64,000 nt of DNA from an uncultured Candidatus Binatia bacterium (GCA_964291295.2 OZ219754.1:363393-427392); one strand, 5' to 3'; shown: positions 4,591 through 24,548, counted from the stretch's first letter. Notes: a model not told the origin generated them from the letters alone. Made by a program: numbers and translations.

Positions 4591-4592
4591 GT

Positions 4593-5243: not shown

Positions 5244-5269
5244 CTTCACCTCCTGAAAAGCGCCGGATT

Positions 5270-6451: not shown

Positions 6452-7608
6452 AGTTCCACGACCCAGTCTCCGACCGATTCATCCTTCGCAAAGAAGATGA
6501 ACCCCAGATCCCTGAGCCTCAGCAACTCTCGATGGAGAGTCCGTCTCGTGACGTTGCGGTACGCGGATTTCACGTATCGGTCCTCAAGCAGTTCCGCCAG
6601 CGCGATGCGCCGGGACGACGCATCCGAGAAGGGATCCACCGGTTCCGTCCCGCTCAGGAGAAAGTCGAGAAGCTGATACTCCCGCTGGTTCAGCAGCCGT
6701 CTGCGAGCGCCCGTTTTCCTGTTGAGGGCCTCCACGAGCATAGTCCGGTACACCAACCGGTTGAGCTTTGCCTTGACGAAGTTGTTGATGCCCTTGAGTT
6801 CGCTCGCGAAGCCTTCAACTCCAAAGCGAACGAAGGCCGTGACATCAAAGGGCTGACGTTCCCGGCATTGTTGCAGGATCGACTTGTACCGACTCTCATG
6901 GCGATAGAAATAGTTGGACAGCCCGTAGAACCCGTGGACGTTGTATCCGAGTTGAAACAGCATTCCCGCTTCGACCAGCCGTGAGACCCTTCCATTGCCG
7001 TCACCAAAAGGATGGACGGTTACCAGGAAAAAATGCGCGAGCAAGGCCCGGACCGCGGGATGAGTCTCCTCGAACCGACGCGAATGGAGAAAGTCGATGT
7101 ACTCCGCCATCAACCGTGGCAGCCCCTCATAAGGCACGCCTCGATGGACCCCTCCCAAGTCGTTTGACCCCACGGTGACAGGAAAACCGCGAAGTTTTCC
7201 CGGAATATTGTTGACGATGTCGGAATCGCGCGTGATCATTTCGTGCAGATTGAAGATATCCGCCAATTGGATGGGAGGCGCGTCAGGGCGAAAGCGATTC
7301 CTCACCCAGGACTGCGCAGCCTCGGCGTTCCTTACCTGCAACTGCTCCCTGGCGGCATTGTCCCGGTTCTTCTCCGAGTCCAGCGACTCGAGCTGTTGAG
7401 CGACTTCGGCCTCGGACAGGGGATTGCCTTCAATGGCTGTCGTTCCGTGAACGGCCCGCACGCGGTTCAGACGATCCAACCGGGCTCGCCAATCTTGTGG
7501 AAACACAAGATTGAGGGCAGCCTCTCTGTACGCTTCGATCTGGACGAGGGCCTGGAAGAGACCCTTCGTATCCAGCTGAAAGTCGAAGGAGAACCGCTTC
7601 CAGTCCAT
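6424..7608 (-). CDS. Fic family protein (AMPylase-type) with N-terminal inhibitory helix and C-terminal wHTH
   Basis: Canonical Fic motif HPFGDGNGRVSR. An N-terminal TTAIEGN matches the autoinhibitory (S/T)xxxE(G/N) motif. An AT-rich promoter-like region lies upstream at 7620-7730. Confidence 0.9.
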   Translation of the reverse strand: MDWKRFSFDFQLDTKGLFQALVQIEAYREAALNLVFPQDWRARLDRLNRVRAVHGTTAIEGNPLSEAEVAQQLESLDSEKNRDNAAREQLQVRNAEAAQSWVRNRFRPDAPPIQLADIFNLHEMITRDSDIVNNIPGKLRGFPVTVGSNDLGGVHRGVPYEGLPRLMAEYIDFLHSRRFEETHPAVRALLAHFFLVTVHPFGDGNGRVSRLVEAGMLFQLGYNVHGFYGLSNYFYRHESRYKSILQQCRERQPFDVTAFVRFGVEGFASELKGINNFVKAKLNRLVYRTMLVEALNRKTGARRRLLNQREYQLLDFLLSGTEPVDPFSDASSRRIALAELLEDRYVKSAYRNVTRRTLHRELLRLRDLGFIFFAKDESVGDWVVELDLGAIARY

Positions 7609-7829
7609 GGATCACCTTATGGTTGTCAGCCTGTCCGACCGCAAAAATGACCGCTCCAACTATTCGAATATACAGGCAATCCATGTGGATCACAATGAAA
7701 ACATCGTCTTGTTTGGCTGACTATATGACTGCTTGTCCGGCACACGGATCAACCTTCTGTGCCATGGTTCGGGAGAGGAAGCGGCCGTATTGAGCGGCCG
7801 CATTGAAACAGTGGCGGGAGTGCGGCGGC

Positions 7830-7868
7830 GGGAGTGCGGCGCCACCGATACGCCGGCGCCGCACTCCC
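7830..7868 (-). terminator. Hairpin downstream of GST gene (putative terminator)
   Basis: Perfect 14-bp inverted repeat, gggagtgcggcgcc (7830-7843) and ggcgccgcactccc (7855-7868), 11 nt past the GST stop. There is no strong U-tract. Confidence 0.4.
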
Positions 7869-7878
7869 GGCCGCGGGA

Positions 7879-8517
7879 TCAGGCGGCGAACGACGCCAGG
7901 GTTTCCTTTTCGAAGGCCAGCAGCTTCCGGACGCTGAGGCGGGTCTGCATGCGCGCGAAATGGGCGCGCGTGTTGGGATAGGGCTCCAGGTCGATGTCGA
8001 ACTGGGTGCTGCGGTGCACGCACCAGAAGAAGTGCGCGTCCGGTGCGGTGAAGTGATCGAAGAAGTACTCGCGCCCCTCCAGCATCCCTTCGGCGATGCC
8101 GTAGGCCTCGGCCAGGAACTCGGAGGCGATACGGGACACACTCTCCTGGCTGGCCGCCAGATCGCACACCTTCGCCGGCGAGTTGATCCGGCTGAGGTAC
8201 GGGTGGACGCCCGACGCGCACCAGGACATCACCGACACCGCCTTGACTTCGTCCCAGGGGTTCGCCGGCAGCAGGTTGGCCTGCGGGTAGCGGCGCGCGA
8301 TCCAGAGCTGGATGGCCGCGTTCTCGGAGAGCGGCTCACCGTCCACCACCAGCAGCGGCACCTTGTGCTTGGGATTGAGCTTCAGGTATTCGTCGGACCG
8401 GTTCTGCCCGGCGCGGAAGTTGAGTGCCTTCACCTCGAAGTCGGCGCCGGCCTCGGTCAGCGTGATGTAGGGCGCCATCGCACAGGTGTGAGGCGCGTAG
8501 TACAACTGGATGCTCAT
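7879..8517 (-). CDS. Glutathione S-transferase
   Basis: MSIQLYYAPHTCAMAPYITL...NPKHKVPLLVVDGEPLSENAAI... shows the typical GST N-terminal thioredoxin-fold motifs. The ATG at 8517 was chosen because the track ORF's upstream extension is the tRNA-Leu shadow. Confidence 0.85.
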   Translation of the reverse strand: MSIQLYYAPHTCAMAPYITLTEAGADFEVKALNFRAGQNRSDEYLKLNPKHKVPLLVVDGEPLSENAAIQLWIARRYPQANLLPANPWDEVKAVSVMSWCASGVHPYLSRINSPAKVCDLAASQESVSRIASEFLAEAYGIAEGMLEGREYFFDHFTAPDAHFFWCVHRSTQFDIDLEPYPNTRAHFARMQTRLSVRKLLAFEKETLASFAA

Positions 8518-8565
8518 GGGAACCTCCACGAAATGATGTTGATGAAACGATGTGATGAAACGTAC

Positions 8566-8652
8566 TGGTGCCGGAGGGGGGACTCGAACCCCCACAGGGT
8601 TGCCCCTACTGGATTTTGAGTCCAGCGCGTCTACCAGTTCCACCACTCCGGC
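8566..8652 (-). tRNA. tRNA-Leu (anticodon CAA), class II with long variable arm, CCA encoded
   Basis: The reverse complement folds by eye as gccggag / D-arm / ctgga-CUCAAAA-tccag / long variable arm / gggggttcgagtccccc / ctccggc-a-cca. Confidence 0.9.
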
Positions 8653-8729
8653 ACGGAGAAGAATGAGAATGGACTAATGGAAATGGCCTAGCTTACGGGT
8701 GAGCGAAGGTCAAGGTCGGGAGCCTCTTC

Positions 8730-8996
8730 TCAGCCGTCGCTGGAAGGGCCTTCCAACGGGATCGCCTGCTCCACCCGCATGACCGGAATGCCGCCGCGGA
8801 TGGCGTAGAGGTATCGGCCGTCCGCGCGCACCAGTCCGCCGCTCATGGGCTCGGTGACCTTCTCCCCGGCGCGGTCGACAAGCTGCCCGGCTTCGATCTT
8901 CCGGTTCAGGTTTTCGACGAGCCCCGGGGCGGCCAGCACCACAGGCTCCCGTGTCTCGGGACAGGCAAGGATGTCGAGCAACTGCCGGTCGATCAC
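8730..8996 (-). CDS. Trm112/UPF0434-family small protein
   Basis: ...LLDILACPETREPVVL...GLVRADGRYLYAIRGGIPVMRVEQAI... fits the Trm112p-like fold pattern. The GTG at 8996 is preceded by GGGAGG-N5. The longer track ORF (to 9161) lacks an SD. Confidence 0.6.
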   Translation of the reverse strand: MIDRQLLDILACPETREPVVLAAPGLVENLNRKIEAGQLVDRAGEKVTEPMSGGLVRADGRYLYAIRGGIPVMRVEQAIPLEGPSSDG

Positions 8997-9253
8997 GTCC
9001 GCCTCCCGTGGTTCCGGTCGAGCGTCGTCTCCATGGAGTCCAATATTCCCCGCCATCCCGCAGGTGTCAATCCGACCGGCCCAAGCCTGCCATCTTCGCA
9101 TCGCCGGTACCATGAGAGAGCGCCGCACCCGATTCGCCCTCGCCGCCGTCGCGGCAAGCATGGACGCGGTATCCCGCGGCCCGTTTGATCCCGCTTGTCC
9201 CGTTTGATGCGCTGCAGGCTCTTGGCTATGTTGCCGTCTGGAGGTGGAGAGCC

Positions 9254-10831
9254 ATGAACGGCACCTTTCGGGAGTACATCGATCTGCTGCGGGCCAATGA
9301 CGAACTGCTGCACATACGCAAGCCGGTGGATCTGAGGGACGTGGCGGCGCTCACGGACCAGAGCGACCGGGCACTGCTGTTCGAGAACCCCGCGGGGTAC
9401 TCCATCCCGGTGGCCTGCGGTCTGCTCCAGAAGCGCGAGCGTCTCGGCCTGGCGATGGACGCCCCCTACCCCGAAATTCACAAGCGTTTCCAGTGGGCCA
9501 TGTCCAACTCCATCGAGCCGGTGCTGGTGGAGGAGGCCCCGGTGAAGGAGTTCGTGCAACTCGGCGCGGACGTGGACCTGTTCAGGCTGCCGGTGCCGAT
9601 CTTCTCCACCCTGGACGGCGCGCCCATGATCACCGCCGCAGTGGTCCTCTCCGAAGACCCCGAGTACGGCATGAACGCCGGTGTCTACCGCCTGATGCTC
9701 AAGGAGCGGAACGTCACCGGCATCGACATCGTGACCCCCAACAACCTTCACAACTTCACCCGGCGGGCGCTGGAGGAGAACCGCCCGCTGCCCATCTCCA
9801 TCTCCATCGGCGTACACCCCCGGGAACTGATGGGGGCGCTTTTCAAGGCTTCGCTGGGAACCAACGAGCTGGGTTTCGCCGGTGGCCTCGGCGGGCGTCC
9901 GGTAGAGTTGACCCCGGGGGTCGCCGGGCCGGTGCCGTTCATCGCGGGCGCCGAGATCGTTCTGGAAGGCGAGATCCCGCCCGAGGGGTGGGTGCATCCC
10001 GAAGGCCCGTTCGGCGAGTTCTCGCGCCTGGTGGGAGGCACCCACCGGAATCCCAACGTCCATGTCAACTCCCTGCTGCACCGGCGCGACCCCATCTACT
10101 ACGCGCTGCACATGCCCTGGGAGAATCTGTGGATGAGCGCCCCGATATACGAAGCCGCCGCCTGGCGGGTGCTGGCCGAGACCGGCGTCCGGGTCGCCGC
10201 CATCAATGTGACCCCGGGCGGCTGCTGCCACTGGCACATCGTGGCGTCCATCCGCAAGAGCCCGGGCGACGGCAAGAACGCCATTGCCGCACTCCTCTCC
10301 ATCGCCGACATCAAGTACGTGGTGGTCACCGACGACGATATCGACATCTTCGATCCCGTGGAGGTGGAGTGGGCCATGGCCACCCGCGTGCAGGCGGACC
10401 GGGACACCGTCATCCTGTCCAATGCCCGCTCCAAGCCCCTGGACCCCTCCATCCCGCCCAGCGCCAACGGTGTCCCCACCACCGCCAAGATGGGCATCGA
10501 CGCCACGATCCCCGAGAATGTGCCGCGCTACCGCTACAACCGCATCGTCTACCACAACCAGGGCAAGGCGCTGCTGGACGACTACCTGGGCGAATCTCCG
10601 GCCACCCCCCTGCCCGCGGCCGCCGCGGACGACGCCGTCGAACAGCTGGCGGAACAGGCCCTGGCAATGTTGGGCGAGAAGCGGCGGACCTTCAGCGAAC
10701 TGCTGGACGCCTTCTCCGACCAGAGCTTCGCCACCGTCATGGCGCTGGTGGGCCGCCTCAACGAACAGAAACGGATCACCCTGGATGAAGAAGGAAAGTA
10801 CATGCCCGCGGAGGAGGACGCACCACGGTAG
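9254..10831 (+). CDS. UbiD-family (prenylated-FMN dependent) decarboxylase
   Basis: 525 aa. It starts MNGTFREYIDLLRANDELLHIRKPVDL..., a typical UbiD N-terminus, and resembles UbiD throughout. The ATG is preceded by GGAGGTGGAG. Confidence 0.85.
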   Translation: MNGTFREYIDLLRANDELLHIRKPVDLRDVAALTDQSDRALLFENPAGYSIPVACGLLQKRERLGLAMDAPYPEIHKRFQWAMSNSIEPVLVEEAPVKEFVQLGADVDLFRLPVPIFSTLDGAPMITAAVVLSEDPEYGMNAGVYRLMLKERNVTGIDIVTPNNLHNFTRRALEENRPLPISISIGVHPRELMGALFKASLGTNELGFAGGLGGRPVELTPGVAGPVPFIAGAEIVLEGEIPPEGWVHPEGPFGEFSRLVGGTHRNPNVHVNSLLHRRDPIYYALHMPWENLWMSAPIYEAAAWRVLAETGVRVAAINVTPGGCCHWHIVASIRKSPGDGKNAIAALLSIADIKYVVVTDDDIDIFDPVEVEWAMATRVQADRDTVILSNARSKPLDPSIPPSANGVPTTAKMGIDATIPENVPRYRYNRIVYHNQGKALLDDYLGESPATPLPAAAADDAVEQLAEQALAMLGEKRRTFSELLDAFSDQSFATVMALVGRLNEQKRITLDEEGKYMPAEEDAPR

Positions 10832-11065: not shown

Positions 11066-11839
11066 TCATCCCCGCAGACTCATCCCTCGCTCAGCTCCGG
11101 ACCGGGTCACCAGAACTTCCTGATCAAACCCGTATCGGGCAACCTCGAAGGCGCCATTCGCTTCCAGATCCCTCGGCGACGGCAAGCCGACATCAAATGG
11201 AAACAGGTGAGGGCAACGAAGCAGGGAGGTGGCCGATCGAGATTTGGCATCGTGGACTGCGAACATGGCCGAGATCGCCCAGATGGAGAGAGGCAGGTCA
11301 TCGACCACCCGTTTGGGAGCAAAGCGGTAGAAGCCTTTCTTCTCCCTTTCAAGAAGTACGCCCCAGTCGATGAATGCCCGAAGGATACGCCGTGCGGCGC
11401 GGGCCACTGTTTCGCGTTCGCCCATTTGCTCGCGGAGTCGGCGCTGAACCTGGGCTGCTCCAACGGTTCCCTGAAGCTGAAGCAACCGCCCGGTCGCATC
11501 GGCGACCGCGCCGAAAAAGGGGTAGGCCGCCATGCACATGCACCAGTGCACCAGCATCCGCTGGTCCCCGGACAGGCGTTGAAGCAGATCAAGCCCGTCG
11601 TCGCGGAGCGGTCGAAGCTCTCCCGGAACGGTAACCCAGACTTTCGTCAGGATCGTGATGGCCTTGTCACGGTTTCCCCGCTCGGGTTCGTTCCCGACCG
11701 ACAACTCGGCCCGCAACCTGTCGCCCAGCGCCGCGACGATCTCGCTTCTCCGACTCCCGGCGAGAACCAGATTCGCCGTGAATTCCAGCCACTCAAGTCG
11801 AATACGCTGGCTGAAACCGACCTGCTCGCTACGCGTCAC
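11066..11839 (-). CDS. Hypothetical protein in the BrxA position of a BREX type-3 operon
   Basis: Last gene of the operon. Its GTG start overlaps the pglZ stop (GTGA). No motif was recognised, so the assignment rests on gene order only. Confidence 0.4.
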   Translation of the reverse strand: MTRSEQVGFSQRIRLEWLEFTANLVLAGSRRSEIVAALGDRLRAELSVGNEPERGNRDKAITILTKVWVTVPGELRPLRDDGLDLLQRLSGDQRMLVHWCMCMAAYPFFGAVADATGRLLQLQGTVGAAQVQRRLREQMGERETVARAARRILRAFIDWGVLLEREKKGFYRFAPKRVVDDLPLSIWAISAMFAVHDAKSRSATSLLRCPHLFPFDVGLPSPRDLEANGAFEVARYGFDQEVLVTRSGAERGMSLRG

Positions 11840-13863
11840 GCCGACACCCTCTCGATCTCGACCATCGGGACCACGACCTCTTCGAGCGAGGCACCGCCGT
11901 GGCATACAATGCGTTCGCCTTCGCGCACGAAGGCTGATCGAGCTGGAGCGAGCAGGGGCAAACAGTCTTCGGGGAGCCCGAGGGCCGGCCACACGACCGC
12001 GTCCGGGAAACGATTGTGCACGCGGGATCGCAGGCTCGGATCGGAATAGACCCGCACGCGTTCGCCCCGAAGGGCGGCGGTCATGCCCTCGGAAGGGCGG
12101 CCGATTCCTTCCGCCTCGATATTTCCGTGGTCCGAGGTCAGAAACACGGCGAAACCGCCTTCGAGCAATGTGTTCAGCAATCCCACCATGAACCCTTCAT
12201 CAGCCCATTGTCGGACTTGGTTGTGCATCCCGGCTGCGCCGAGTTCCATGCCGTGCATGATTCTGTCGACCTTGTCGACCACAAGACCGAGGACGCGGAG
12301 ACCGGGCCATGAAAGAAGTTCGCGAACGCTGTCGATGCAGCCGCTCCCCAATCCTCTCGCATATGTCACCTCCCGCACCGTCAGGCCGTGGTCGGTCCAG
12401 AACCGGGTCCACAACGAAGCTTCCCTGTCCGTGGTCCAGAGGCTTGAGGGAAAGTAGAGTGGGGGCGTGCCGGCGAAGATTGCCTGCCGGGAAACCGAAG
12501 TGACCGTCGGTATCCATGCGAAAACAGCTTCTTCACGAAATCGGAATCGCGACTGACGAAGTGCGAGAATGTCCCGGAGTGCGATCCATTGGTCGAGCGC
12601 GAGACCGTCGACAACGACGAGTGCGACCCTGTTTCCACCTGCATTCGAAAGCCGCCGTTCGAGATACCGCGGCAGGTGATGGACCATCACCGGCGGGTCG
12701 GGCGGCTGATTATGAAGCCCCGCATAACGGCACTCGGTCCAGGAGCAAAACGACCGGTCGACATCCCTGCGAAGACCGCGCATCCGCTCATTCATGCCAG
12801 ATCGCGTCGCGTCCGTCGTGTCCGACCAGAGAAGGCCCAACTCCGCCCATCGCCAAGCGAAGGCCGTCCAGTCGTAGTGCCGTGCGCCGGTATCGGGGAT
12901 CGTATTGGCAACGGTATCCATCAGGCTGCGGAGCCGTCGCGATTTGCCAGACTCGTTGTCGTTTCTTATCCCGACCGCCACCCATCTGTCATTGAGGGCG
13001 TCGCTCGACCTGTGATGCACAGGCGAAAGCAGTCCCTCGACGAACAGATTGTCGATGTAGATGCGCACGTCACCATGGTCGAAAGGCAACTCGACGGGGC
13101 CTGCTATCGCCGGATCGAACGCCGCATTCGCATCCCGAACATGATACTCGGTGTCCCACGCGATGCGGTCGAGAAAAGGGGACCAGTGGTCCTGAAGGAA
13201 AGAAAGGAAGGCTTCCCGATCCGGCACGATGGTCTCAAGTGGCCAGGAGTCGAAGGCTGCGTCCTGGCGAAGCTTATGGACCAGGCACTGCTCCAGCGAG
13301 CGCGGAAGCCGCTGACGCCGGTAATGCTTCCGCAACAGAACACGCAGCAAATCCGCACCGTCCCTGATAAGCGCGACAGAGATTCCAAAGACGTGCAGAA
13401 GCACAAAGTCCTTCGTCGCATCGTCGCCGCACTGAATGAATCCGTGTTGCGCCCGTGCCCGATAGAGAGCGTCGAGATTGCTTCTGTCAAGTGAAGCGAC
13501 AACAGGGTAGCTGAGATGGGGAAACAGTTCCTCCAGGCCGAAGGAAAGTTGCCGGCCGACCTGCAAGAGATCGTAGGGAAGGGTGGCGAGATCATGCTTC
13601 CCGGTCTGAAGAACAACCACCAAGTCGCGAACCTCACCCCGGTCCCGGCGGAATCGAAACCCGGTTTCGTAGGCGAAGCGGAACGCGACAGGGTCGTCGA
13701 ATACCAGAACCTCGAAGCCCCTCTCGCGTATCGCGTCGAGGAGGTTCTCTTCGAGCAACAGCGCGTCCGGGTCCGCGGCCAAGGTAAGCCCAGCCACCTT
13801 CGGCGTGAAGTGCCTCAATATCCGATTGCGCCAATCATCGGTCTTCCCGTAGGACACGTTCAC
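11836..13863 (-). CDS. pglZ: PglZ alkaline-phosphatase-superfamily protein (BREX)
   Basis: PglZ-domain hallmarks are present: VALVVVDGLALDQW, IPTVTSVSRQAIFAG and FLTSDHGNIEA. The start overlaps the methyltransferase stop by 4 nt. Confidence 0.85.
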   Translation of the reverse strand: MNVSYGKTDDWRNRILRHFTPKVAGLTLAADPDALLLEENLLDAIRERGFEVLVFDDPVAFRFAYETGFRFRRDRGEVRDLVVVLQTGKHDLATLPYDLLQVGRQLSFGLEELFPHLSYPVVASLDRSNLDALYRARAQHGFIQCGDDATKDFVLLHVFGISVALIRDGADLLRVLLRKHYRRQRLPRSLEQCLVHKLRQDAAFDSWPLETIVPDREAFLSFLQDHWSPFLDRIAWDTEYHVRDANAAFDPAIAGPVELPFDHGDVRIYIDNLFVEGLLSPVHHRSSDALNDRWVAVGIRNDNESGKSRRLRSLMDTVANTIPDTGARHYDWTAFAWRWAELGLLWSDTTDATRSGMNERMRGLRRDVDRSFCSWTECRYAGLHNQPPDPPVMVHHLPRYLERRLSNAGGNRVALVVVDGLALDQWIALRDILALRQSRFRFREEAVFAWIPTVTSVSRQAIFAGTPPLYFPSSLWTTDREASLWTRFWTDHGLTVREVTYARGLGSGCIDSVRELLSWPGLRVLGLVVDKVDRIMHGMELGAAGMHNQVRQWADEGFMVGLLNTLLEGGFAVFLTSDHGNIEAEGIGRPSEGMTAALRGERVRVYSDPSLRSRVHNRFPDAVVWPALGLPEDCLPLLAPARSAFVREGERIVCHGGASLEEVVVPMVEIERVSA

Positions 13864-16800
13864 GCCTTATTCATGCGCGTCAACGCCTGATCGTACCAGA
13901 GCAGGAGTTTCTGGTCCTCCTGGAGAACGGCATCGGGAATCTTCTCGGCGACCTCCACAATGGTGGCGTAGTCCCGATCCTGGTAGGCCCTGAAGAAGCC
14001 CGCGCGAACCGCTTCAAGTCGGAAGAGCTTGAGCCGTCGCGCCGAAGACTGGCGGTAGTCATCGAATTCGCGCAGAAGCGCGCGAGTACGGCGTTTCTCG
14101 ACATCCGCCGCCTTGCTGGGATCGGGCACATACCAGCGATCCTTGGCCTTGCCACGCAAGGCCGTATGGTCCTTCGGCAGGTTGCGCAATTCCTTGAAGT
14201 TGGTGGACAGGTAGGCGTGGATCTGGCTGGGCACTTCACCGACTCCATCAAAGCACAAGAAGTTCTGTTCCAGCATCTCCGACAGCTCGGGTAGCTTTTC
14301 GTGCTTCTGCCAGCCCGTGATCTCCCGGAGAAACTGGGGATGAATTTCCTGAAAATTCTGGGGTTTGTGAGCCAATAGTCTTCTGAGCCAGTCTATCGCG
14401 GAGGATTCGTTGATGACGAAGATCTCCAATTGCGCCACTTCTCCGACTGACAAGCGTTTCTTGTCGTATTCGACAACTTGCTCGGGCAGAAAGATCATGC
14501 CGTCCCGTTCGGGAAAACGCTGGAAGATGCCGGCCAGGAAGCCGCTCACTGAAAGAGGCACCGTCACATTGCGCAGGACATGGAAGGCAACCATGCGATC
14601 GAACAAAACATGGGGCTGGCGCTCGTTGACGATCTCGACCCGACCGTCCTTGAGAACGAACACAGGCAATTGGGCAAGATGGGTGTGGAGGAAGTCCCAC
14701 ATACCTTGCTCGGTTCCCCTTGTCAATGCAAAGCGTTCTTCCAACCCGTCGTTGGGCTTGTACGCCGAGATGACGAGATCCTGCTCCACTGCGGTGCTCG
14801 TGACTTGACGGTAGGACCCCTGTCTCTTGTCCAAGGTACGCACATCGGCGACGACGAAACCGACTGTCAACATGGCTTCCTGAATAGAGGTCCAAACCGC
14901 GTTCTTGGAATTGTGGAAGACGACGGTCATCCAACGCCCGGGCTTTAGGACGCGGCGATACTCCTCGAAACAGCCCTGCATCAGGTACTGATATTCCAGC
15001 AACCTTTTCTTCTTAAATTGATCTATGATGGCTTCCGATACCGCATTGGTCATGATGCCGTGCCAAGATTCAATCAGTAAGTTCAAATCCGCGTAGAAGA
15101 TATTCTCGCCGAATGGCGGATCAGTGAAGATGTAATCGATCGAGTTTTCAGGCAAGGAGGTTTCTGCACAGTCTGCAGTTGAAACAATTGTAGAGTTGGC
15201 GTGTACGCGGGCAAGCATGAAGGCTTTATGTAATTGAGAAAGCTTTCCGGCAAGCCTATACCAAGGGGAAATCTCTGCGATCTGGGAAGGAATGTAGTAG
15301 ACACCACTAAGAATTTGATTTGATTGAGAACCTTGATTTGCTCGAAACCGATTAAGCAGAGACATCGTTGATACGGCCTGCTCGGCGAAGTAGAGCAGCA
15401 TATGGCGAATTCGGATGTCGGGATGGGCTTTGGCCCGTCGCCACATCGCCGCCAAGGCGTTCGCGGAGCGGGGCAAAAAAAAGTGATGCGTGTGGTTGAC
15501 ACCCTTCGGGGCCAGTCGCGAACCGTGATACATGTCGTCGACAGGCAACTGACTGGTTGGAACATCCGCCGGGAGGGGAAGCTTCGAGATGCGGCGGACA
15601 ATTTCAAGATCATCAGCGTCGGGCCGCTTTTCGAATGCCTTGCCGTCGATCGTGTATCGGATCAACGCCGGCCTGAAAGTGATATGTTTTCGAACATCAC
15701 CCGTGGCGGCATCCAGGTCGGACTCAAACACGCGCTCCAACCTCTTCTTGTTCAACTCAGCATCGCAGTCAGGACAAGGGAAAGTGCTCCTGACCCGGCC
15801 GCTCGCCCGATCTAATGCCTCTTCAAGAAACACGATCTCGCTCGTGCATTCAGGACAAGCAAACACCTCGCTCCAGACGGTGTAGTCGATCCGCCCTTTG
15901 GTCTTGCCGTCGATGTGCCGGGTTTCATACATCCAGCCAAGTTCGGCTTCCACCTCGTCAAGCAGCGTACGCCCGGCCTCGGCAAAGGCATCGACATCAA
16001 GGGGCAGGCTGTAGTTGGCGGCAATGAAACCGGCAAGCGGCGAAAGGTCGTTCAAAACCGTGCGCCGAAGCCCCCATTTCGGTGTACCGAAACCATCCCT
16101 GGCCCAAAGTGCTTCAAGCGATTTGCGGTAGCTCTCCGGCGCGGTTTCGCACCACTGGGCCGCCACACCGGTCATGCCCGAGCCGGCAAAGCCGTCCAGG
16201 ACAAGATCACCGGGCTCGGTGTAATGAAGAATCGACGGCACGATGGCCAGATGCGGCACCTTGGTATGGTAGCTGTGCGCCCGGTAGACAGGATGGGTCT
16301 TGCCTTCGCTGACATCGACAGCGAACGGTTTGCGGCGATAGGGCTGCTGCGGGTCGTAAGCCCTTCCATAGATCTCCACGAATGCGCCCAGGAACGGGTT
16401 CGGGCAAGCCGTGTGCCACGGCGGATCGGACAGATCAAGGATATCTTCGATCTTGCCGTGGGGGAATCCGACCTCATCCTTCCAGCGCTGCAGCAAATCC
16501 TTGGACGAGTCGGCATGAAGCATGCGCTCCGCGAGTTCGCGAAGTCGGGCATCCCCACCCATCGGCCAGTGCTCAATGGCTGCCATCCGGGCTACCGCAT
16601 CGTCAACATCGGTGTAAGGCAAACCGCCGAGGGCCGTATGCAGCTCCTCCAGGCCATTCCTCAACCTGTCAAGAAAATGGGACCGCCGGGCCTCGTCATT
16701 CTCGAAGACGATACCGAGGCATTCCATCGGCTGGTCACGCCTGGCCTCCAATTCCTCTTCACGGGGCTTGTTGAACATCTCTCCATGTTCCAACGGCTTC

Positions 16801-16868
16801 CAGAAGAGTCGTCCGGTTCGGCGGTTCCGCCCGCTATGCGTCATCCGTCGATCCCCTGTCGCTCGCAT
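13860..16868 (-). CDS. pglX: BREX type-3 PglXI-like N6-adenine DNA methyltransferase with Zn-ribbon
   Basis: YHTKVPH...DLVLDGFAGSGMTG (AdoMet motif I), CPEC...CPDC zinc ribbon, and DYIFTDPPFG (motif IV). The true start may be the ATG at 16844 or 16778. Confidence 0.8.
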   Translation of the reverse strand: MRATGDRRMTHSGRNRRTGRLFWKPLEHGEMFNKPREEELEARRDQPMECLGIVFENDEARRSHFLDRLRNGLEELHTALGGLPYTDVDDAVARMAAIEHWPMGGDARLRELAERMLHADSSKDLLQRWKDEVGFPHGKIEDILDLSDPPWHTACPNPFLGAFVEIYGRAYDPQQPYRRKPFAVDVSEGKTHPVYRAHSYHTKVPHLAIVPSILHYTEPGDLVLDGFAGSGMTGVAAQWCETAPESYRKSLEALWARDGFGTPKWGLRRTVLNDLSPLAGFIAANYSLPLDVDAFAEAGRTLLDEVEAELGWMYETRHIDGKTKGRIDYTVWSEVFACPECTSEIVFLEEALDRASGRVRSTFPCPDCDAELNKKRLERVFESDLDAATGDVRKHITFRPALIRYTIDGKAFEKRPDADDLEIVRRISKLPLPADVPTSQLPVDDMYHGSRLAPKGVNHTHHFFLPRSANALAAMWRRAKAHPDIRIRHMLLYFAEQAVSTMSLLNRFRANQGSQSNQILSGVYYIPSQIAEISPWYRLAGKLSQLHKAFMLARVHANSTIVSTADCAETSLPENSIDYIFTDPPFGENIFYADLNLLIESWHGIMTNAVSEAIIDQFKKKRLLEYQYLMQGCFEEYRRVLKPGRWMTVVFHNSKNAVWTSIQEAMLTVGFVVADVRTLDKRQGSYRQVTSTAVEQDLVISAYKPNDGLEERFALTRGTEQGMWDFLHTHLAQLPVFVLKDGRVEIVNERQPHVLFDRMVAFHVLRNVTVPLSVSGFLAGIFQRFPERDGMIFLPEQVVEYDKKRLSVGEVAQLEIFVINESSAIDWLRRLLAHKPQNFQEIHPQFLREITGWQKHEKLPELSEMLEQNFLCFDGVGEVPSQIHAYLSTNFKELRNLPKDHTALRGKAKDRWYVPDPSKAADVEKRRTRALLREFDDYRQSSARRLKLFRLEAVRAGFFRAYQDRDYATIVEVAEKIPDAVLQEDQKLLLWYDQALTRMNKA

Positions 16869-18729
16869 CCTTGTCCTTTTTCACGCGGCGGAGTTTGATC
16901 GCAACGCCGACGTCGGTCAGCACATAGGCCTGATGCGGGTGGTTGGGTTGGTCCGGATGGACCATACGGAGAACACCCCCTTGCAAAAGAGGATCAAGAT
17001 GATGCTTCTTGAAAAACCCCCGACTGGTCACTCCGACTTCATCCATGATCTCTGCCAATCGACGGGGCGTGTCGCAAAGCCTGACGATCTTCTCCTGGGT
17101 CGCCGAAAGCTTCCAAAGGGGATCTTGTGCAGTAGACAAGTTGTCCGAATCCGAACCCGGTTGTACAATGGACAAGTCCTCCCGCCTTTTCGAACCTTGG
17201 TCAGTGGCGAGATTCGACGCCCCGGCACCCACCCGCTTACCGGATCGATTCGGTTGACTCAGCCGCTCCTTGAGATATTCGGCGACGACGAAGGCCGACG
17301 ATTCCTCGCGACCCGCCGGCGAAACGAGCCCTTGGACCGTCAGGTGCTCCAGGACTCCATGGACATCAACTCCAGACAGGCCGGTGACGGCATGTACATC
17401 ACGTGGACGCACCCTGCCCTCACGGCACGCGAAGGCGAACGTCCTGGCCTCGGCATCGTCAAGGCGGACGCCGAGGCTTGCATGGAACAGGAGTTGCTTC
17501 TCGGACAGGAGTTCCTCCTTGGCCAGGATCAGTTGAAAGGCCTTGCGCGCTCTGTCGTTGGAGACTGTCGGCGGCACACGTCCGAACTGTCGCCAGTTGC
17601 CGAAGATGGCGCGGATACCTGTCCCGGCCTGCTCGCTCAGGCCGATCCGGCGGAAGGTGGCAACGATCCTCGGGTTACGCACCTCCTTCTCACCGGGATC
17701 AAGCAGTTCGTCTGCGGATGCGAAGGCGTCGCCGGGATTCCAGAATATCGTTCGGTCGTCGAAGAACCGGATCGTCGGCATTCGGGTGTGGTCTGCGTAA
17801 TCCTGATGCATCAGAAGGTTGATCACGGCTTCGCGAAAAGCGATGTAGTCCGGCGGATGGTCTTCGCGCCGCAATGTCTCGGGATTGACAGAGAACGGCT
17901 TCTCGGCACGCTGAAGGTAGCGGTCCACCAGCGTTTTCCACGAGTTCACGAGATTGGTCTCGATCACCAACCGGTCAACCCAGCGTTCGTTGGACCACTC
18001 TTCCGACCAGTCGCCGCGGCTCCACTGCCAGTCCACGACGGGACGCGGAAGTATCTGGCGAAAGGCAGGCGCGGCGCCGAACAGAAGGATCGCAGCGCGG
18101 GTCGGCAACAGCCGACCGCCGGCTTCGACAACCAAGCCCCAATGATGGAGAAACTCCAAGTCCGGCAAAGTCTCGTCGTGACCGGGGTTCCGGCCGTCGA
18201 ACAGCTTGCGGTACCAACGTATGGAGCCATGGTCGAAGCAGCGTTCAGGATCGATGGCGACAACCTCTCCATCGTGGCGCTCGTCAGCCGCGTCCCGCAG
18301 CAGCCGCTCGATTTCGGCTTCCGTGCAGCGCTGGTCGCCCGCGCCCCGACGCAGGAACGATTGCCGGATGTTGCCGTCGAGATAGACCGGCTTGTCCTGT
18401 CTGCGCGCCTCAGGGATATGGAAAACCAGAAGGGCCTTGTCATCGTCCTCAATCAAACGCTCTTTCGCGGTGATGACTCGATTGAGCTTCTGGCCGGAAC
18501 GCAGGGTGCCGAGGAAGTCGTTCTGTACCTTGTCCACCTCCAGAACGCCAACGATCTCGAAGCCGCCGGCGCCGTCACGAACGCCGAACACCAGCCAGCC
18601 ACCCTCGGTGTTGGCAAAGGCCGAGACGGTCTCATAAGCATTTTTTGGAACCGCATGTCGAGCTTCCTTGAACTCGATGTCGGTCCATTCGTAGCCCTTC
18701 AGACGTTCGATGAGCTCCTCTTTCTCCAT
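16834..18729 (-). CDS. AlbA_2 (Schlafen-like) + HATPase_c_4 + wHTH putative DNA-binding protein
   Basis: The N-terminal EWTDIEFKEA...ETVSAFANTEGGWLVFGV is typical of AlbA_2. The central ...FREAVINLLMHQDY...GLSEQAGTGIRAIF is typical of the RecG-like C-terminal HATPase_c_4 region. There is no Walker A and there are no helicase motifs. Confidence 0.7.
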   Translation of the reverse strand: MEKEELIERLKGYEWTDIEFKEARHAVPKNAYETVSAFANTEGGWLVFGVRDGAGGFEIVGVLEVDKVQNDFLGTLRSGQKLNRVITAKERLIEDDDKALLVFHIPEARRQDKPVYLDGNIRQSFLRRGAGDQRCTEAEIERLLRDAADERHDGEVVAIDPERCFDHGSIRWYRKLFDGRNPGHDETLPDLEFLHHWGLVVEAGGRLLPTRAAILLFGAAPAFRQILPRPVVDWQWSRGDWSEEWSNERWVDRLVIETNLVNSWKTLVDRYLQRAEKPFSVNPETLRREDHPPDYIAFREAVINLLMHQDYADHTRMPTIRFFDDRTIFWNPGDAFASADELLDPGEKEVRNPRIVATFRRIGLSEQAGTGIRAIFGNWRQFGRVPPTVSNDRARKAFQLILAKEELLSEKQLLFHASLGVRLDDAEARTFAFACREGRVRPRDVHAVTGLSGVDVHGVLEHLTVQGLVSPAGREESSAFVVAEYLKERLSQPNRSGKRVGAGASNLATDQGSKRREDLSIVQPGSDSDNLSTAQDPLWKLSATQEKIVRLCDTPRRLAEIMDEVGVTSRGFFKKHHLDPLLQGGVLRMVHPDQPNHPHQAYVLTDVGVAIKLRRVKKDKDASDRGSTDDA

Positions 18730-18735
18730 CGGCGT

Positions 18736-21700
18736 CTATTCCAGCACAACCCGTACATTGGCCGGTTCCTGTCCCTTGGTCATTTCATCCAGATGGCTCT
18801 CGAAACGCTTCTTCATCTCGTCGGGTCGTGCGGGCGAACCGCCGGCAAGGAGTGCGGCTTTCAGATCATTGGTCTTCAAGACCACTTTGACCAAACCCGA
18901 CAGAACCTCCTGGAGAGGCTCGATCAATTCGAGATCCAAGGGATCGGGGAGTTCTCCTTTCTTCGTGAAGGCGGTGACCCGTTCCCGTTGAGCCGGCTCA
19001 AGCAGCGAAAGGCTTTCGCGAATGGATGGATCGTCAAGATTGGCGAGCAGCGTTTGCGTCCAGTCGGCGAGCAGCCCGTCAATCTTCTCGTCCAGTCTGG
19101 CAAGGGTTGTTCCGGCGACGCTGGTTGTCTCAAGGGCCGGCCTGAACCCACAGTGCGGGCAGACCGGAGCGGTTTCCGTCTCTTCCTTGGTGAGAGCGAA
19201 ACAAGTCTTCAATTCGTCAAGGCGTTCCTTCAAATCGATCAGATGCTGGACCGGCATGAGGTCAATTGCGGAGAGCGCATGGAGGCGGGCAAGCCTTCCG
19301 TCGCTCATCAGCGTGGTCTTCCTCCTCTCGTTGTTTGCGCCAAGCCGCGCCTTGGCGTGGAGGTCCAGATATATCCCGACGAAGGATTGCTTCAAGTCGT
19401 TAATCTTGCGTAGCGACCGGCGGCGGATCGCCGGCAATTCATGCTCGGCCGAGGATCGCACGATATCTGCCAGCACTTCGTCGCGGACAGCCTTCATTTG
19501 CGTCGCCCATTCATGGGACGGGGGAAGCACTGCCTCCGCCGCGCTGAGGAAAGCCGTCACGGGGGCCAATTCGGAAGCCGTCCCAAGGACGCCCTCCACT
19601 TCTGCCATTGATGCGAGCTCCGCTGCATGGCTGCTCACCTCCTCGGCGTCATGCCGGAGGTTCTTGAGACGGCCCGGCGTGGTATAAGCTTGGAGAGATT
19701 CAAGAAAAGTCTTGGCCCGCTCCAGCGTCGCACTCAAGTTTGTCCCTGCTTCCGATTCAATCAGGTTTCTGCCCCAGCACGGAATCCCGTTCTGAACTGC
19801 TCGTTGGGCGATGAGCAGCCTTTCCACGGTCCGGCCAACGGCCTTCTGAAGCTCCTGTACGGGATCTTGCTCGCCATGGGTGACAAGGGTCGCCATGCCC
19901 GGGGCAAGGCCAAACAAATCGAACAGCGCCTTGAGAGCAGGGATATTCCAGTCCTTGGGCCGCTCGATATGCTTGAAGCGGACGATCTCGTCGAGCGGTA
20001 GGGCGGCGAGAGCGGACAGGTCGGTGGCGTCGAACTTCCGTCCGGGAACAGCGAGCACGAGATCGCCGGAATAGACCAATGTCGCAAGCAACACCACGGC
20101 CCATTCGGGTTCCAGCCGCAAAGTCTGCGGAGCCAAGTATTCGACGCCGAGCAGTTCCTGAATCAGTTCGGCGCGGTTGACGACTTGGCCGCGGCCCTTC
20201 TTGTGCACCTGATCGAGGATTTGGACAGCATATCTTGATCGATGGGGATCGAGCCTGTCGCCGTCCAGGAGATGGAGCGCGTCGAGAATCGCTGTGGCCT
20301 GTCTCGTTTTCGTCGTGCCGGCGATCCACCGCAACGCATCCTGGGTGGCTTGAGCACGGTTGGACGACGTGATCAGCACGGAAAATTTCGGATAGTCCGG
20401 TGCCTGGTCGGCGAAGTGGGCATCAAGGCAGATGCCGGCAATCGCGTTGATCATATCCCGGAAGTTTATGCGCTCGGAGGGAAGCGTCCCGGAGAGTTCA
20501 CGAGGAGAATGCCCCTTGGCCCATTCGAGCAACGCCTTGCGGCGACCTTGATAGCCAATTTCGAAGGCCATGCCCATGTGCTCCTGAAGCCAATTGACCA
20601 GATCGCGGAGGAATCCCGACGCCTTCGATTCGTAAGTTGCCTTGGCGTGCCCGGATGAGGTCGACGCCAAATCGACCGAGGCTGCGTAGCCACACAGGAT
20701 CTCCCGGAATCGGTCGTCTTCGCCGATGAGATGGAAAAAGACCTCGTCCGCCGCCTTCTCGTCCTTGAAACGCGGCGGCTCGTGCGGCTGGATGAAATAC
20801 AGGTAGAAATCGCGCGGAGGCGCTGCGGTGGACCGCTCATTCGGCGCACCGAAGAACAAGTACCCCCGGCGAGCCGCCTTGCGCGCTCGCCATTCGAGTT
20901 CGTGCTCCCAGATATGGTAGCCGGTGACGTAGGTTTCGTCGGTGCACTCCATCACCCGCCGCAGCGCATCGTAGTAGTAGCGGTCCAACCGTGCCGCATC
21001 AAGGCTTTCGGCCCGTTTCTCGATCAACGCGTCGAAATCGTCGGTTTTCTTGAGATCGAGATAGTATTGGCGGTTGTCCGGATTCGACGAAATGAACTGG
21101 CCGCTGACGGTCTTGTGTATCTCGCGGAGCACCGTTTCCACTTGTGACAGGAGATCGTCGGCAGGATCTCCCCCGAGATCCTCGATCCCGGGCTGGTACA
21201 GACACAGCCTGTCCCTCAACTCCTCGGCGGTGGCCCCAAGTGGGGCGTGCATGTCGCCGGTAGTCAGCCGGTGCACCGAAAGCGCATGAATGATTCGTAC
21301 CGCCATGGGCTTGTAGGCAGGTCTCGTGAACGCCTGATCGATCCGGGACTCCAGCACTTGGCTGCAATCGATAATGGCCTTGATGTCCGGGAGGGTCCGG
21401 AAGGACGGGTTCGTTCGCAATGTGGACCAGTAGCCGTCATAGGCGATGAGGCCCGGTCGGTCGGTCGGAAGGTCTCGCCCAATCAGCTGCTTCATTGCCA
21501 ATGACAGGGTTCGGAGGATTTCGCGCTTTTCGACGACGGTCACACGCTCGAAGGTGTCGATGTAATCGGGATGGACCGGGAACAGGTCCACATACTCGTC
21601 CATTCGCTCGTTCATGAGCCCGTAGAACTTGGCGAAGGGCGCCAGGTATTCCCTGATCCGAACCTGCTGCTCGCCGGTTTTTCGGAGCAGTCGTTGCGCC

Positions 21701-22464
21701 ACGACAAACTTCACGTCCCTCCGGGCGATAAGTACTTGCTCGAAGCGATCCTTTACTCGACGGATGCTGTCAGCGACGAAGGCGAAACGCGGGCTGTCGA
21801 AAATGGCCTCCTGCACCCCGGCGATGAAGCGCAGCCGGAGATCCTTGCAGACCTCGCCGATTTCGCGCAGGAAGTTGAGGTCCAGGATCAGTTCCTGGTC
21901 CTTGCGTGATCGCAGATAGTCCAGAAGCTCGTCCACGACCAGCAGCAGGCCGTGATCGGGGTAGGCTCGGTGAAAGGCCGCCATCATCTCCTCGAAGGCA
22001 CGCTTGCTGCCGGAGACCTCTGAAGCGCCCGGAAAGGTAAACGACACACCAAGCGCATCCAGGCGCTCCTCCAGTTCGCCACAGACGATGTCGCGCAGGG
22101 ACATCGTGGTGGCGCCGATCTCGGTTCGAACCACCTTGAACTTGCCGGCCACCGCATTCGTTTCTTGCAAGGCCCTCGGATTGGAAAGTTCCGATGCCAG
22201 TTCGGCGTATTCGGCGATGCCGGAAATGACCGACATCAGGTGCGATTTGCCTGTGCCATAGTTGCCGACGATCAGGACCCCCTTGTTGTCGGCGGGTTTG
22301 TCGTACTGAAGTTGCGAAAACACCACGGCCGACAGCTTCTCGGCCATGTCATCGGAAATGACATAGCTGCTTACGAGATGGCGCGCGGCGGCCGTGTCGT
22401 CGGCATCGCGGAGTTGTACAACGCTCTCAATCGGATCGAACCAGATCAGATTGTCGTACTTCAT
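18736..22464 (-). CDS. brxC: BrxC/PglY-like large P-loop ATPase (BREX)
   Basis: 1242 aa with Walker [10 protein letters not shown] near res 68 and Walker [13 protein letters not shown]. The ATG abuts the upstream gene's TAG. Confidence 0.7.
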
Positions 22465-22938
22465 CTATGTCGCCGCCTGCATGCGCACGGTGAGAATGCC
22501 GTCAATCGGGTAGCACCGGTACTCGGGATGCCCTGGCTGAGAGTAAGAGAGGCACCGGTCTTCAATGGATCCGTTCCAGGCTGCAATCACGGTCATGTGC
22601 CGCGACAGATACTGCAACAGGCGAAGCGGATCCTGCCGTAGCGAGACATCGAAAAGAAGCTCGATACGGTTGAGCAGAACGATATCGCTTTCGGTTTCGG
22701 AAACGATCTGCTCAAGAAGCTGTTGGACATGGAGCGGGCGCTGCCGCTCGGCCAGATCCAACAAGCGGCGGGAGAGTTCGAGGTTGACGTTTACGATGGG
22801 CACACCGATGCACTTGCCGACTGCCTGCAGGCTGTCGGTATTGCCCCCGCTCTGCCCGCCAACGATCAGGACGAGCCGGTTGTAAAGGCCGCGTGCAAGT
22901 CGAACCTTTTCGTTTACCGCCTCGGCCAGACTCTGCAT
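22465..22938 (-). CDS. brxF: BrxF-like small P-loop-fold protein (BREX type 3), Walker A lysine absent
   Basis: Roughly 157 aa immediately upstream of brxC. It has a P-loop-like LVLIVGGQSGGNTDS. The ATG at 22938 overlaps the HTH gene stop (TGATG), and a GTG at 22941 is also possible. Confidence 0.55.
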   Translation of the reverse strand: MQSLAEAVNEKVRLARGLYNRLVLIVGGQSGGNTDSLQAVGKCIGVPIVNVNLELSRRLLDLAERQRPLHVQQLLEQIVSETESDIVLLNRIELLFDVSLRQDPLRLLQYLSRHMTVIAAWNGSIEDRCLSYSQPGHPEYRCYPIDGILTVRMQAAT

Positions 22939-23147
22939 CACGCGTCATCTCCGATGTCCACCATGTCCGTTGCACCGCCTTGACCCAGCCAGCGATCGAT
23001 CGTCTTCTTCTGGAATCGCCAGAGCCCTCCGACTGTCCGGCACGGAACCCTGCCTTCCTGCGCCAGCTTGCAGAGCGTCGGATGCGATCCCCTCAGACAG
23101 TCGGACAACTCGTCGATCGCCAAGACGTTGCCCGGTTCCGTCTCCAC
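22938..23147 (-). CDS. Excisionase/MerR-type helix-turn-helix DNA-binding protein
   Basis: 69 aa. ...LAIDELSDCLRGSHPTLCKLAQEGRVPCRTVGGLWRFQKKTIDRWL... shows the pattern of the excisionase-family HTH. It is the first gene of the BREX operon. Confidence 0.6.
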   Translation of the reverse strand: METEPGNVLAIDELSDCLRGSHPTLCKLAQEGRVPCRTVGGLWRFQKKTIDRWLGQGGATDMVDIGDDA

Positions 23148-23243: not shown

Positions 23244-23260
23244 ATCCAATCATTTTGGAT
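23244..23260. promoter_or_regulatory. Palindrome ATCCAA-N5-TTGGAT in AT-rich region upstream of the BREX operon
   Basis: Inverted repeat read directly from the sequence. It sits about 100 nt upstream of the HTH gene start, in the only AT-rich stretch of this intergenic region. Confidence 0.25.
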
Positions 23261-23265
23261 ACAAT

Positions 23266-23481
23266 TGGGGGCACTTTCAAGGCTTCGCCGGGAACCAACG
23301 AGCTGGATTTCGCCGGCGGCTTCGGCGGGCGTCCGGTAGAGTTGACCCCGGGGGTCGCCGGACCGGTGCCCGTTCATCGCGGGCGCCGAGACCGTTCTGG
23401 AAGGAGAGATCCCGCCCGAGGGACAGGTGCATCCCGAAGGCCCGTTCGGCGGGTTCTCGCGCCCGGTGGAGGGCACCCACC
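23266..23481 (+). pseudogene. UbiD-family decarboxylase internal fragment (duplicate of 9831-10046, frameshifted)
   Basis: Hand alignment to the intact gene gives about 15 substitutions plus two 1-nt indels over 216 bp. It encodes ...FKASPGTNELDFAGGFGGRPVELTPGVAGPV..., then goes out of frame. Homology ends at the amidohydrolase stop codon. Confidence 0.8.
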
Positions 23482-24548
23482 TACGGATCCAGCCGGTAGA
23501 AGCGGCGCGCATTGTCCGCGAGGATGGCCGCCTTGTCGTCGTCGGTGAGCGCCGGGTTGCCGGTCACCTCGGCGATCTCGTGGCCGATGTCGCCGGGGCC
23601 GATCTCGTGCGGGAAGTCGCTGGCGAACAGGAACCGCCCGTTGCCGGCCCGCTGGATCTGGTAGTCGAGGCCTTTCTCGCCGCCCTCGCAGCCCACGAAG
23701 ACGTTGTCCAGGAGCCCGTAACGGCTTGGCGGGTGCTCGGGACCGGGACCGTCATAGTTGCCGTGGGAGTTCCACTCGCCGAAAAAGGCATGGGATCGAT
23801 CCATCCGGTCCATCCAGAAGCTCAGCCATCCCGCGCCCCCTTCCAGGAACGCCACCCGCAGATTCGGAAACCGGTCGAAGACGCCGTGGTAGACCATGCC
23901 CGAGAAGGCGATCATCAGGCTGAAAGGGTGTCCCAACCCGGCCACGGGAACGAACGCCCCGAAAGTGTCGAGCCCCATGCCGTGATGGCAGCCGCCGTGC
24001 ACCGCCAGGCCGCAGCCCAGCCGTTCCGCCTCCGCATACACGTCCCAGTAGATCCTGTGGCCCAGATCCATGGGCAGCCCGCGCGAGGGCAGCATGGCCC
24101 CCCGCATGCCCAGCTCCGTCACCGCCCGGCGCAACTCCCGGACCGCCTCCTCCGGTACCTGGAGCGGGAGGAGCGCCATGCCCTTGAGCCGCGGATTGTC
24201 CTTCAGGTACCGGTCATGGAGCCAGCTGTTGTAGGCGTGGGCCACGGCGCAGGCCCAGTCCGGCCCGCTGATGTTGCCCATGGCCAGGCCCCAAGTGGGA
24301 TACAGGACGCTGCACTCGAACCCGGCCTCCTCCACGAACGAGCGCCAGTCCGCGGGCGTCACGGGCTTGCCGCCGCCAAAGGCGTCCTCGCTCAGATACC
24401 TGAGTCCCAGGTGATGGTGGTCCAGAGAGGGAAAGACCCGCGTCAGGATGCGCCGGCTTGCCTGACTGCGATAGGGCTCCTCGATGTAATCGACGATGGA
24501 CTCGTCCTCGATCACATGGCCATCGGCATCGATGACGGGCAGGCGCAC
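23481..24548 (-). CDS. Amidohydrolase-2 (ACMSD-like) family metal-dependent hydrolase/decarboxylase
   Basis: VIDADGHVIE... at the N-terminus and ...FASDFPHE near the C-terminus are typical of PF04909-type amidohydrolases. The GTG at 24548 is preceded by AGGAGG-N8. Confidence 0.7.
   Translation of the reverse strand: MRLPVIDADGHVIEDESIVDYIEEPYRSQASRRILTRVFPSLDHHHLGLRYLSEDAFGGGKPVTPADWRSFVEEAGFECSVLYPTWGLAMGNISGPDWACAVAHAYNSWLHDRYLKDNPRLKGMALLPLQVPEEAVRELRRAVTELGMRGAMLPSRGLPMDLGHRIYWDVYAEAERLGCGLAVHGGCHHGMGLDTFGAFVPVAGLGHPFSLMIAFSGMVYHGVFDRFPNLRVAFLEGGAGWLSFWMDRMDRSHAFFGEWNSHGNYDGPGPEHPPSRYGLLDNVFVGCEGGEKGLDYQIQRAGNGRFLFASDFPHEIGPGDIGHEIAEVTGNPALTDDDKAAILADNARRFYRLDP

Follow-up and report, generated by a model that had tools for sequence, protein, structure and literature searches.

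The locus at positions 11,066 to 23,147 of a 64,000-nucleotide stretch of DNA from an uncultured Candidatus Binatia bacterium (GCA_964291295.2 OZ219754.1:363393-427392; the whole stretch is hereafter called the window) encodes a bacteriophage exclusion (BREX) system of type 3 that has no BrxHII helicase and in which an additional gene lies between brxC and pglXI. The question is whether this is a new kind of BREX, a system in which the extra gene has taken over from the helicase, or a remnant. On the evidence below, the locus probably holds a complete BREX type 3 system that was acquired horizontally and belongs to a recurrent lineage without BrxHII, with a Schlafen-GHKL-winged helix-turn-helix (wHTH) gene standing between brxC and pglXI. 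It is a well-preserved example of a known variant, and both the absence of the helicase and the Schlafen gene already appear in published surveys.

Gene content and organization of the operon

Seven tightly packed, co-directional open reading frames (ORFs) encode, in order, a small HTH_17 protein, BrxF, BrxC, the Schlafen-family protein, PglXI, PglZ and BrxA (see the table). BrxF is the BREX type 3 protein, with 171 bits against NF033453 BREX_3_BrxF (cut-off 50) and a PADLOC BrxF match (E = 1.5e-55) covering residues 1-156 on a 158-position profile. BrxC is likewise of the type 3 kind, matching PF19557 (DUF6079) end to end with 1745 bits and PADLOC BrxC with 1922 bits; its Walker A motif GNYGTGKSH is found at residue 67, and D178 and E179 do not vary across the aligned BrxC homologues (alignment A1). 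The methyltransferase is PglXI and not PglX, as demonstrated by a PADLOC PglXI score of 1308 bits over profile positions 9-918 of 919, together with a PF01555 match. In its layout, motif I (LDGFAGSGMTG at 224) is followed by an inserted target-recognition domain with a four-cysteine zinc finger (CPEC at 338, CPDC at 365) and then by the DPPF motif (TDPPFG at 582). PglZ belongs to the BREX-3 subfamily (NF033449, 782 bits, cut-off 250; PADLOC PglZ, E = 1.9e-275; PF08665), scores far under the cut-offs of the BREX-2 and BREX-4 models, and contains TVTSVSR at 453 and SDHGN at 577. The last gene encodes BrxA (PADLOC E = 7.5e-77, profile positions 2-248 of 251), which closes the type 3 order brxF-brxC-pglXI-(brxHII)-pglZ-brxA at its 3' end.

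Features of the BREX island and its surroundings in the window
Feature	Coordinates	Strand	Description	Evidence
HTH	22938-23147	(-)	69 aa, small HTH_17 (excisionase/MerR-type) DNA-binding protein	PF12728 31.8 bits, cut-off 27
brxF	22465-22941	(-)	158 aa, BREX-3-specific small STAND-like protein	NF033453, PADLOC BrxF
brxC/pglY	18736-22464	(-)	1242 aa, type 3 (DUF6079) AAA+ ATPase	PF19557, PADLOC BrxC
Schlafen gene	16834-18729	(-)	631 aa, SLFN_AlbA_2 + HATPase_c_4 (GHKL) + Fic-like_C wHTH	PF04326, PF13749, PF21247
pglXI (BrxXI)	13860-16868	(-)	1002 aa from first ATG, N6-adenine DNA methyltransferase	PADLOC PglXI, PF01555
pglZ	11836-13863	(-)	675 aa, BREX-3 type, alkaline-phosphatase fold	NF033449, PADLOC PglZ, PF08665
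brxA	11066-11839	(-)	257 aa, type 3 kind, GTG start overlapping pglZ stop	PADLOC BrxA
Candidate sigma-70-like promoter	23252-23280	(-)	TTGAAA-17-CAAAAT, ~105 nt upstream of HTH start	9/12 positions, weak
UbiD-type gene fragment	23265-23486	(+)	~220 bp, frameshifted	~92% identity to 9831-10050
UbiD gene	9185-10831	(+)	Intact	
tRNA-Leu	8566-8652			
54-nt direct repeat	3111-3164 and 6398-6451		Flanks RES-toxin/Xre-MbcA-ParS antitoxin pair, abuts Fic-domain gene	91% identical copies
Genes near the 54-nt repeat	3961-4713, 4593-5471, 6424-7608			

The genes are translationally coupled. The TGA that ends the HTH gene overlaps the start codon of brxF (GTGATG), the brxF TAG abuts the brxC ATG (TAGATG), and a 6-nt spacer separates brxC from the Schlafen gene. 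The stop of the Schlafen gene lies 35 nt inside the longest pglXI ORF, although an alternative pglXI start at M31 (16778) would leave a 55-nt gap instead of an overlap. The pglXI/pglZ and pglZ/brxA junctions are 4-nt overlaps (GTGA in each). Every gene is full length against its profile, no frameshifts are present, and the overlaps are preserved. The original prediction, made from the sequence alone, had described the seven packed minus-strand genes, the TGATG, abutting and 4-nt junctions and the quoted motifs of BrxC, PglXI and PglZ, and all of these were found as described. Its assignment to type 3 BREX in the expected order without BrxHII was correct, and the gene that it placed in the brxA position is brxA. 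The check that it proposed, with PADLOC and the NCBI BREX-3 profiles, places BrxF, BrxC and PglZ in BREX families well beyond chance.

The small HTH protein at the head of the operon scores 37.4 bits against the MAD1 equivalog model NF047737 of MADS (cut-off 80) and falls under the cut-off of TIGR01764. It is a generic excisionase/HTH_17 relative and probably regulates the operon. The promoter scan that gave the candidate upstream of it returned 5 sites where 3.0 were expected, so the scan does not rise above chance.

Absence of BrxHII here and in related loci

Pfam helicase profiles gave no match to any of the seven proteins at E <= 0.01. A verified BrxHII query (the protein of locus L012, with 1535 bits against PADLOC BrxHI|BrxHII and SNF2/Helicase_C domains) gave no tblastn match at E <= 1e-3 across the 64-kb window. 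BrxHII does not lie between pglXI and pglZ as in the 2015 definition, since these two genes overlap. The earlier claim that no helicase is encoded here is therefore upheld. The further suggestion of a reduced or variant subtype describes nothing unusual. In a published census, type 3 BREX was reported in 919 taxa with BrxHII in 702 of them (77%), and the BrxHII-less loci (23%) were still counted as type 3 (PMC12839542, NAR 2026). Helicase-less type 3 loci are thus common and catalogued, which the original prediction had itself named as grounds for giving up its claim of novelty, and that claim fails.

Alignment A1 was also used to scan one genome per species, and at least 538 species genomes encode a relative of BrxC. 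The 80 best loci were taken (L002-L081, ranked by similarity to the window BrxC), the window proteins and BrxHII were mapped onto them by tblastn, and ORFs in the inter-gene gaps were extracted and clustered. With the window included, 45 loci could be assessed for the pglXI-pglZ interval, and BrxHII is present in 24 and absent from 21; because loci were ranked by BrxC similarity, such frequencies are biased towards relatives of the window. In canonical loci brxHII (~950 aa) lies directly upstream of pglZ, that is, between pglXI and pglZ. Five helicase-less loci retain a brxHII relic adjoining pglZ: N-terminal, Tudor-region pieces in L011 (20258-20443), L035 (19227-19349), L047 (19569-19934) and L057 (19586-19711), and a C-terminal piece in L053 (20223-20366). 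These relics indicate that the helicase was lost repeatedly, by internal deletion.

The window is not alone in its gene order, which, again without any gene separating pglXI from pglZ, is seen in at least six further loci. The exact order brxF-brxC-Schlafen-pglXI-pglZ-brxA is found in a member of the Syntrophobacterales (L002), in two of Candidatus Binatia (L003, L004), in one of the Thermoanaerobaculia (L048), in L082 (HTH gene included, BrxC 85% identical) and in L085, which carries frameshifts in brxC and pglZ. BrxC in the same-order loci is 62-85% identical to that of the window. The same order in distant taxa at this level of identity argues for long-term maintenance without BrxHII. In a neighbour-joining tree of BrxC, L002-L007, L023 and L048 form a group with the window; all of these loci are Schlafen-positive and helicase-negative.

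Other parts of these loci vary. An HTH_17 gene (65-70 aa, often overlapping brxF) lies directly upstream of brxF in 34 of 78 BREX-3 loci (~44%), for example in L082 (9289-9528), L083 (9322-9531) and L085 (5566-5775); in L087 a WYL-domain gene takes its place. Both inter-gene slots are hot spots for cargo, including known defence genes (HEC-01/02/03-like ATPase modules, PDC-S02 (DUF1016), PDC-S19 (DUF3644), Ppl and GmrSD) and a UvrD-like helicase. The UvrD/REP-type helicase gene (698 aa) occupies the brxC-pglXI slot of L016 (13747-15843), where BrxHII is retained. Ten loci (L013, L029, L036, L043, L044, L047, L051, L055, L057 and L063) carry a two-gene cargo between pglXI and brxHII or pglZ (e.g., L057, 16601-19568); one gene encodes an AAA_15/AAA_21/DUF3696 ATPase of ~640 aa (PADLOC NsnB/HEC-03B-like), the other a protein of ~350 aa that matches nothing in Pfam or PADLOC. 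In L083, the second-closest relative of the window (BrxC 84%), an IS66-family element (TnpB and transposase, 13539-15921) has taken the place of the Schlafen gene together with the end of brxC and the start of pglXI (its first ~575 codons).

The Schlafen-GHKL-wHTH gene

The protein encoded between brxC and pglXI matches PF04326 at residues 14-135 (57 bits, cut-off 25.3), PF13749 at 318-400 (47 bits, cut-off 26) and PF21247 at 555-605 (37 bits, cut-off 27), the last region also matching the Fic C-terminal domain in PDB 4rgl. Its catalytic-type motif Ex4ExK (E14-WTDI-E19-F-K21) and the GHKL residues N304, NPGD (331-334) and GTG (369-371) do not vary among 28 aligned homologues. PDB sequence and profile searches returned only the AlbA_2 domain (2kyy), 3lmm, the Fic C-terminal wHTH (4rgl) and mammalian SLFN5, SLFN8 and SLFN14, and no helicase.

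By its domains, then, the extra gene encodes a Schlafen-GHKL-wHTH protein, a class already published as widely BREX-associated. It has all three domain features of the HisKinase-HTH Schlafens, namely an AlbA_2 domain with Ex4(E/D)xK, a PF13749 GHKL domain and a C-terminal wHTH. This class, pSlfn-HisKinase-HTH, makes up 19.2% of 5,930 prokaryotic Schlafens (pSlfns; bioRxiv 10.1101/2025.07.24.666596), and the same architecture has been described as the 'Schlatpase' supradomain (Schlatpase-HTH; bioRxiv 10.64898/2026.05.29.728809). At least 1017 taxa were reported to have Schlafen-histidine-kinase-wHTH proteins linked to BREX/BR loci, and these proteins were read as back-up effectors (PMC12839542); a cluster of Schlafen, ATPase and DNA-binding protein (BREX-associated cluster 2) was found to be 'tightly associated' with BREX (PMC13462974, Nat Commun 2026).

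The Schlafen gene is the most frequent cargo between brxC and pglXI: a close orthologue directly follows brxC in 24 of the 80 loci, and further loci have a more distant protein of the same architecture there. Orthologues coexist with BrxHII in a Methanosarcina locus (L039) and on two annotated plasmids, pRA04 of Roseicitreum antarcticum and one of Roseomonas mucosa AD1 (L087 and L088), where PGAP labels the Schlafen protein 'RNA-binding domain-containing protein' and BrxHII 'helicase-related protein'. The original prediction placed an AlbA_2 gene between brxC and pglXI instead of the helicase; the position stands, but 'instead' does not, since the slot of brxHII is pglXI-pglZ and orthologues occur together with BrxHII. 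Strict mutual exclusivity of the two genes is rejected by these three loci and by distant proteins of the same architecture in helicase-containing loci.

Some relatives have lost most of the BREX genes and kept the Schlafen gene. In L001 (9788-11887; Schlafen 83% identical) and L084 (9292-12019; 75% identical) an intact Schlafen gene is preceded only by relics of BrxC, BrxF and HTH; with these relics directly upstream, such 'stand-alone' homologues are no evidence of a non-BREX origin. In L086 (10001-14981) only the overlapping Schlafen and pglXI genes are found, among housekeeping genes, and the pair may itself constitute a two-gene module. That the Schlafen gene outlives a decayed BREX points to a module that is autonomous and selected separately, rather than to an obligate subunit of BREX. 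An experimental precedent is BxaP, which is encoded by a gene embedded in a type 3 BREX, defends alone by abortive infection and works without BREX (PMC10799925).

Three other explanations were weighed. The Schlafen protein might have functionally replaced BrxHII as an integral BREX-3 component, its ATPase-driven nuclease taking the role of effector or translocase. Consistent with this, BrxHII is missing from 14 and present in 3 of the loci with close orthologues, while it is missing from 9 and present in 23 of the other assessable loci (naive Fisher p = 7e-4; L082, L085, L087 and L088 are counted besides the survey loci). The gene also has a fixed position, 6-10 nt after brxC and often overlapping pglXI, and all close homologues examined trace to BREX-3 contexts or remnants. 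The enrichment is nevertheless not robust, because it comes largely from the single BrxC-tree clade described above and represents only about four independent lineages, because BrxHII coexists with orthologues, because BrxHII was lost in seven loci that also lack the Schlafen gene (L029, L035, L038, L047, L053, L055 and L057), and because the two genes occupy different slots. Including the distant same-architecture proteins that coexist with BrxHII in L009, L012, L018, L019 and L062, p rises to 0.047. The persistence of the Schlafen gene alone after BREX decay also speaks against replacement, which we regard as unlikely. The same low probability applies to the Schlafen protein having become a wired-in BREX-3 part in the window clade that compensates for loss of the BrxHII translocase; such a protein could, for example, be activated via PglXI or BrxC on sensing unmethylated DNA, coupling BREX recognition to tRNA cleavage.

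A degenerating remnant, in which loss of brxHII inactivated exclusion and no more than an orphan methyltransferase and a lone Schlafen gene is left, has parallels in the decayed relatives (L083, with its IS66 element; L084 and L001, which keep only the Schlafen gene; L086, which keeps Schlafen and pglXI; and L085, frameshifted in brxC and pglZ). The genes of the window, however, are all intact and retain their overlaps, and the helicase-less architecture is conserved across phyla at the BrxC identities given above, which implies purifying selection on BrxC, PglZ and BrxA after helicase loss; decay of the locus itself is accordingly quite improbable. Least credible is that the Schlafen-family protein chiefly serves to regulate transcription of the operon by binding DNA, without acting as a nuclease effector, as in the old COG2865 'predicted transcriptional regulator' view. 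Its C-terminal wHTH domains (PF21247, with faint MarR-like matches in homologues) and its place within the operon would suit a regulator, but a simple repressor would not need the invariant Ex4ExK and GHKL ATP-binding residues, the operon already begins with a small HTH gene of its own, and related Schlafen-GHKL modules have been shown in the literature to be tRNases.

We therefore favour a complete and functional BREX type 3 system that carries the Schlafen gene as a separate module. Judging from type 1 BREX and the domain content, PglXI would mark host DNA by N6-adenine methylation at a specific motif, and BrxC, BrxF, BrxA and PglZ would exclude unmethylated DNA; in the window lineage this exclusion would proceed without the Snf2/RapA-like BrxHII translocase. 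The Schlafen-GHKL-wHTH protein is most likely an autonomous second-layer (back-up) effector and, by analogy with other Schlafen classes, may act as an ATP-regulated tRNase. According to the literature, other pSlfns act as tRNases and in abortive infection, and the activation of SLFN-pAgo is ATP/GHKL-driven.

Several points weigh against this interpretation. The Schlafen/pglXI overlap in the window, L082, L085 and L086 is a tight coupling that could mean functional integration and not autonomy, and a helicase could be encoded elsewhere in the genome, outside the window. The AlphaFold2 model of the Schlafen protein, built from the 28-sequence alignment, is too poor to support an active site (mean pLDDT 47, pTM 0.23). 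Only two of seven tested pSlfns gave defence, both of other architectures (bioRxiv 10.1101/2025.07.24.666596). The literature yielded no experimental data on defence or tRNA cleavage for HisKinase-HTH prokaryotic Schlafens, and no experimentally characterised type 3 BREX system.

Island borders and comparison with known systems

The island is of horizontal origin and foreign in composition. Its genes have a GC content of 0.565-0.624 and a third-position GC (GC3) of 0.68-0.76, compared with 0.66-0.69 and 0.88-0.93 in the neighbouring UbiD and MMPL genes, and the lowest GC (0.526) is at 15001-16000, within pglXI; the AT-richness that the original prediction judged by eye is thus real. The island lies between the intact UbiD gene and an amidohydrolase gene. 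An internal fragment of the UbiD gene is duplicated, with two 1-nt indels between the copies, and the copies bracket the low-GC island, the second one lying just upstream of the operon and abutting the amidohydrolase gene stop. No integrase or transposase was found in the island. A tRNA-targeting integrase island was considered, as tRNA-Leu is nearby, yet neither an integrase nor an att-like tRNA repeat is present, and the island is bracketed by the UbiD-fragment duplication instead.

The flanks of the window contain UbiD, tRNA-Leu, GST, Fic, RES-Xre, MMPL and amidohydrolase genes. Positions 3000-9000, which include the 54-nt direct repeat, have lower GC than their flanks and could form another small islet, of a mobile or defence kind, beside tRNA-Leu.

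The locus, compact and intact without a helicase, shows that BREX-3 can be kept in the long term without BrxHII, which is useful for choosing a minimal construct. Its Schlafen protein belongs to the most abundant bacterial Schlafen class, HisKinase-HTH. The main value of the locus is as a compact candidate for first experiments on type 3 BREX and on HisKinase-HTH Schlafens; either the window locus or the plasmid-borne loci of the culturable Roseomonas mucosa and Roseicitreum antarcticum would be reasonable test beds. Four incremental observations were not found in the texts of PMC12839542, PMC13462974 and PMC10799925: that relics of brxHII remain, that ~44% of loci carry the HTH_17 gene, that the Schlafen gene persists where BREX has decayed, and that its clade is skewed towards helicase loss.

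Among known systems, the extra gene at a fixed inter-gene slot resembles BxaP (PMC10799925) and the HEC ('Hma-embedded candidate') families of PADLOC. BxaP differs in lying between pglXI and brxHII, in being rare (0.29% of BREX-carrying metagenome-assembled genomes) and in having a sequence unrelated to the Schlafen protein. With the HisKinase-HTH Schlafens, or Schlatpases, the window protein shares the SLFN_AlbA_2 domain with Ex4ExK, the PF13749 GHKL domain, the C-terminal wHTH and a tight association with BREX, whereas the characterised Schlafen examples carry other sensor domains (Ig-like, DUF262, pAgo core, Csx15). The locus agrees with BREX type 3 (Goldfarb et al., 2015; re-surveyed in PMC12839542, NAR 2026) in its BrxF, DUF6079 BrxC, PglXI with nested target-recognition domain and four-cysteine zinc finger, BREX-3 PglZ and BrxA, all in canonical order. 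It departs from the six-gene system of 2015 in lacking the Snf2/RapA-like helicase BrxHII, in the Schlafen-GHKL-wHTH gene between brxC and pglXI, and in the small HTH_17 gene upstream of brxF, and all three of these deviations are common among type 3 loci.

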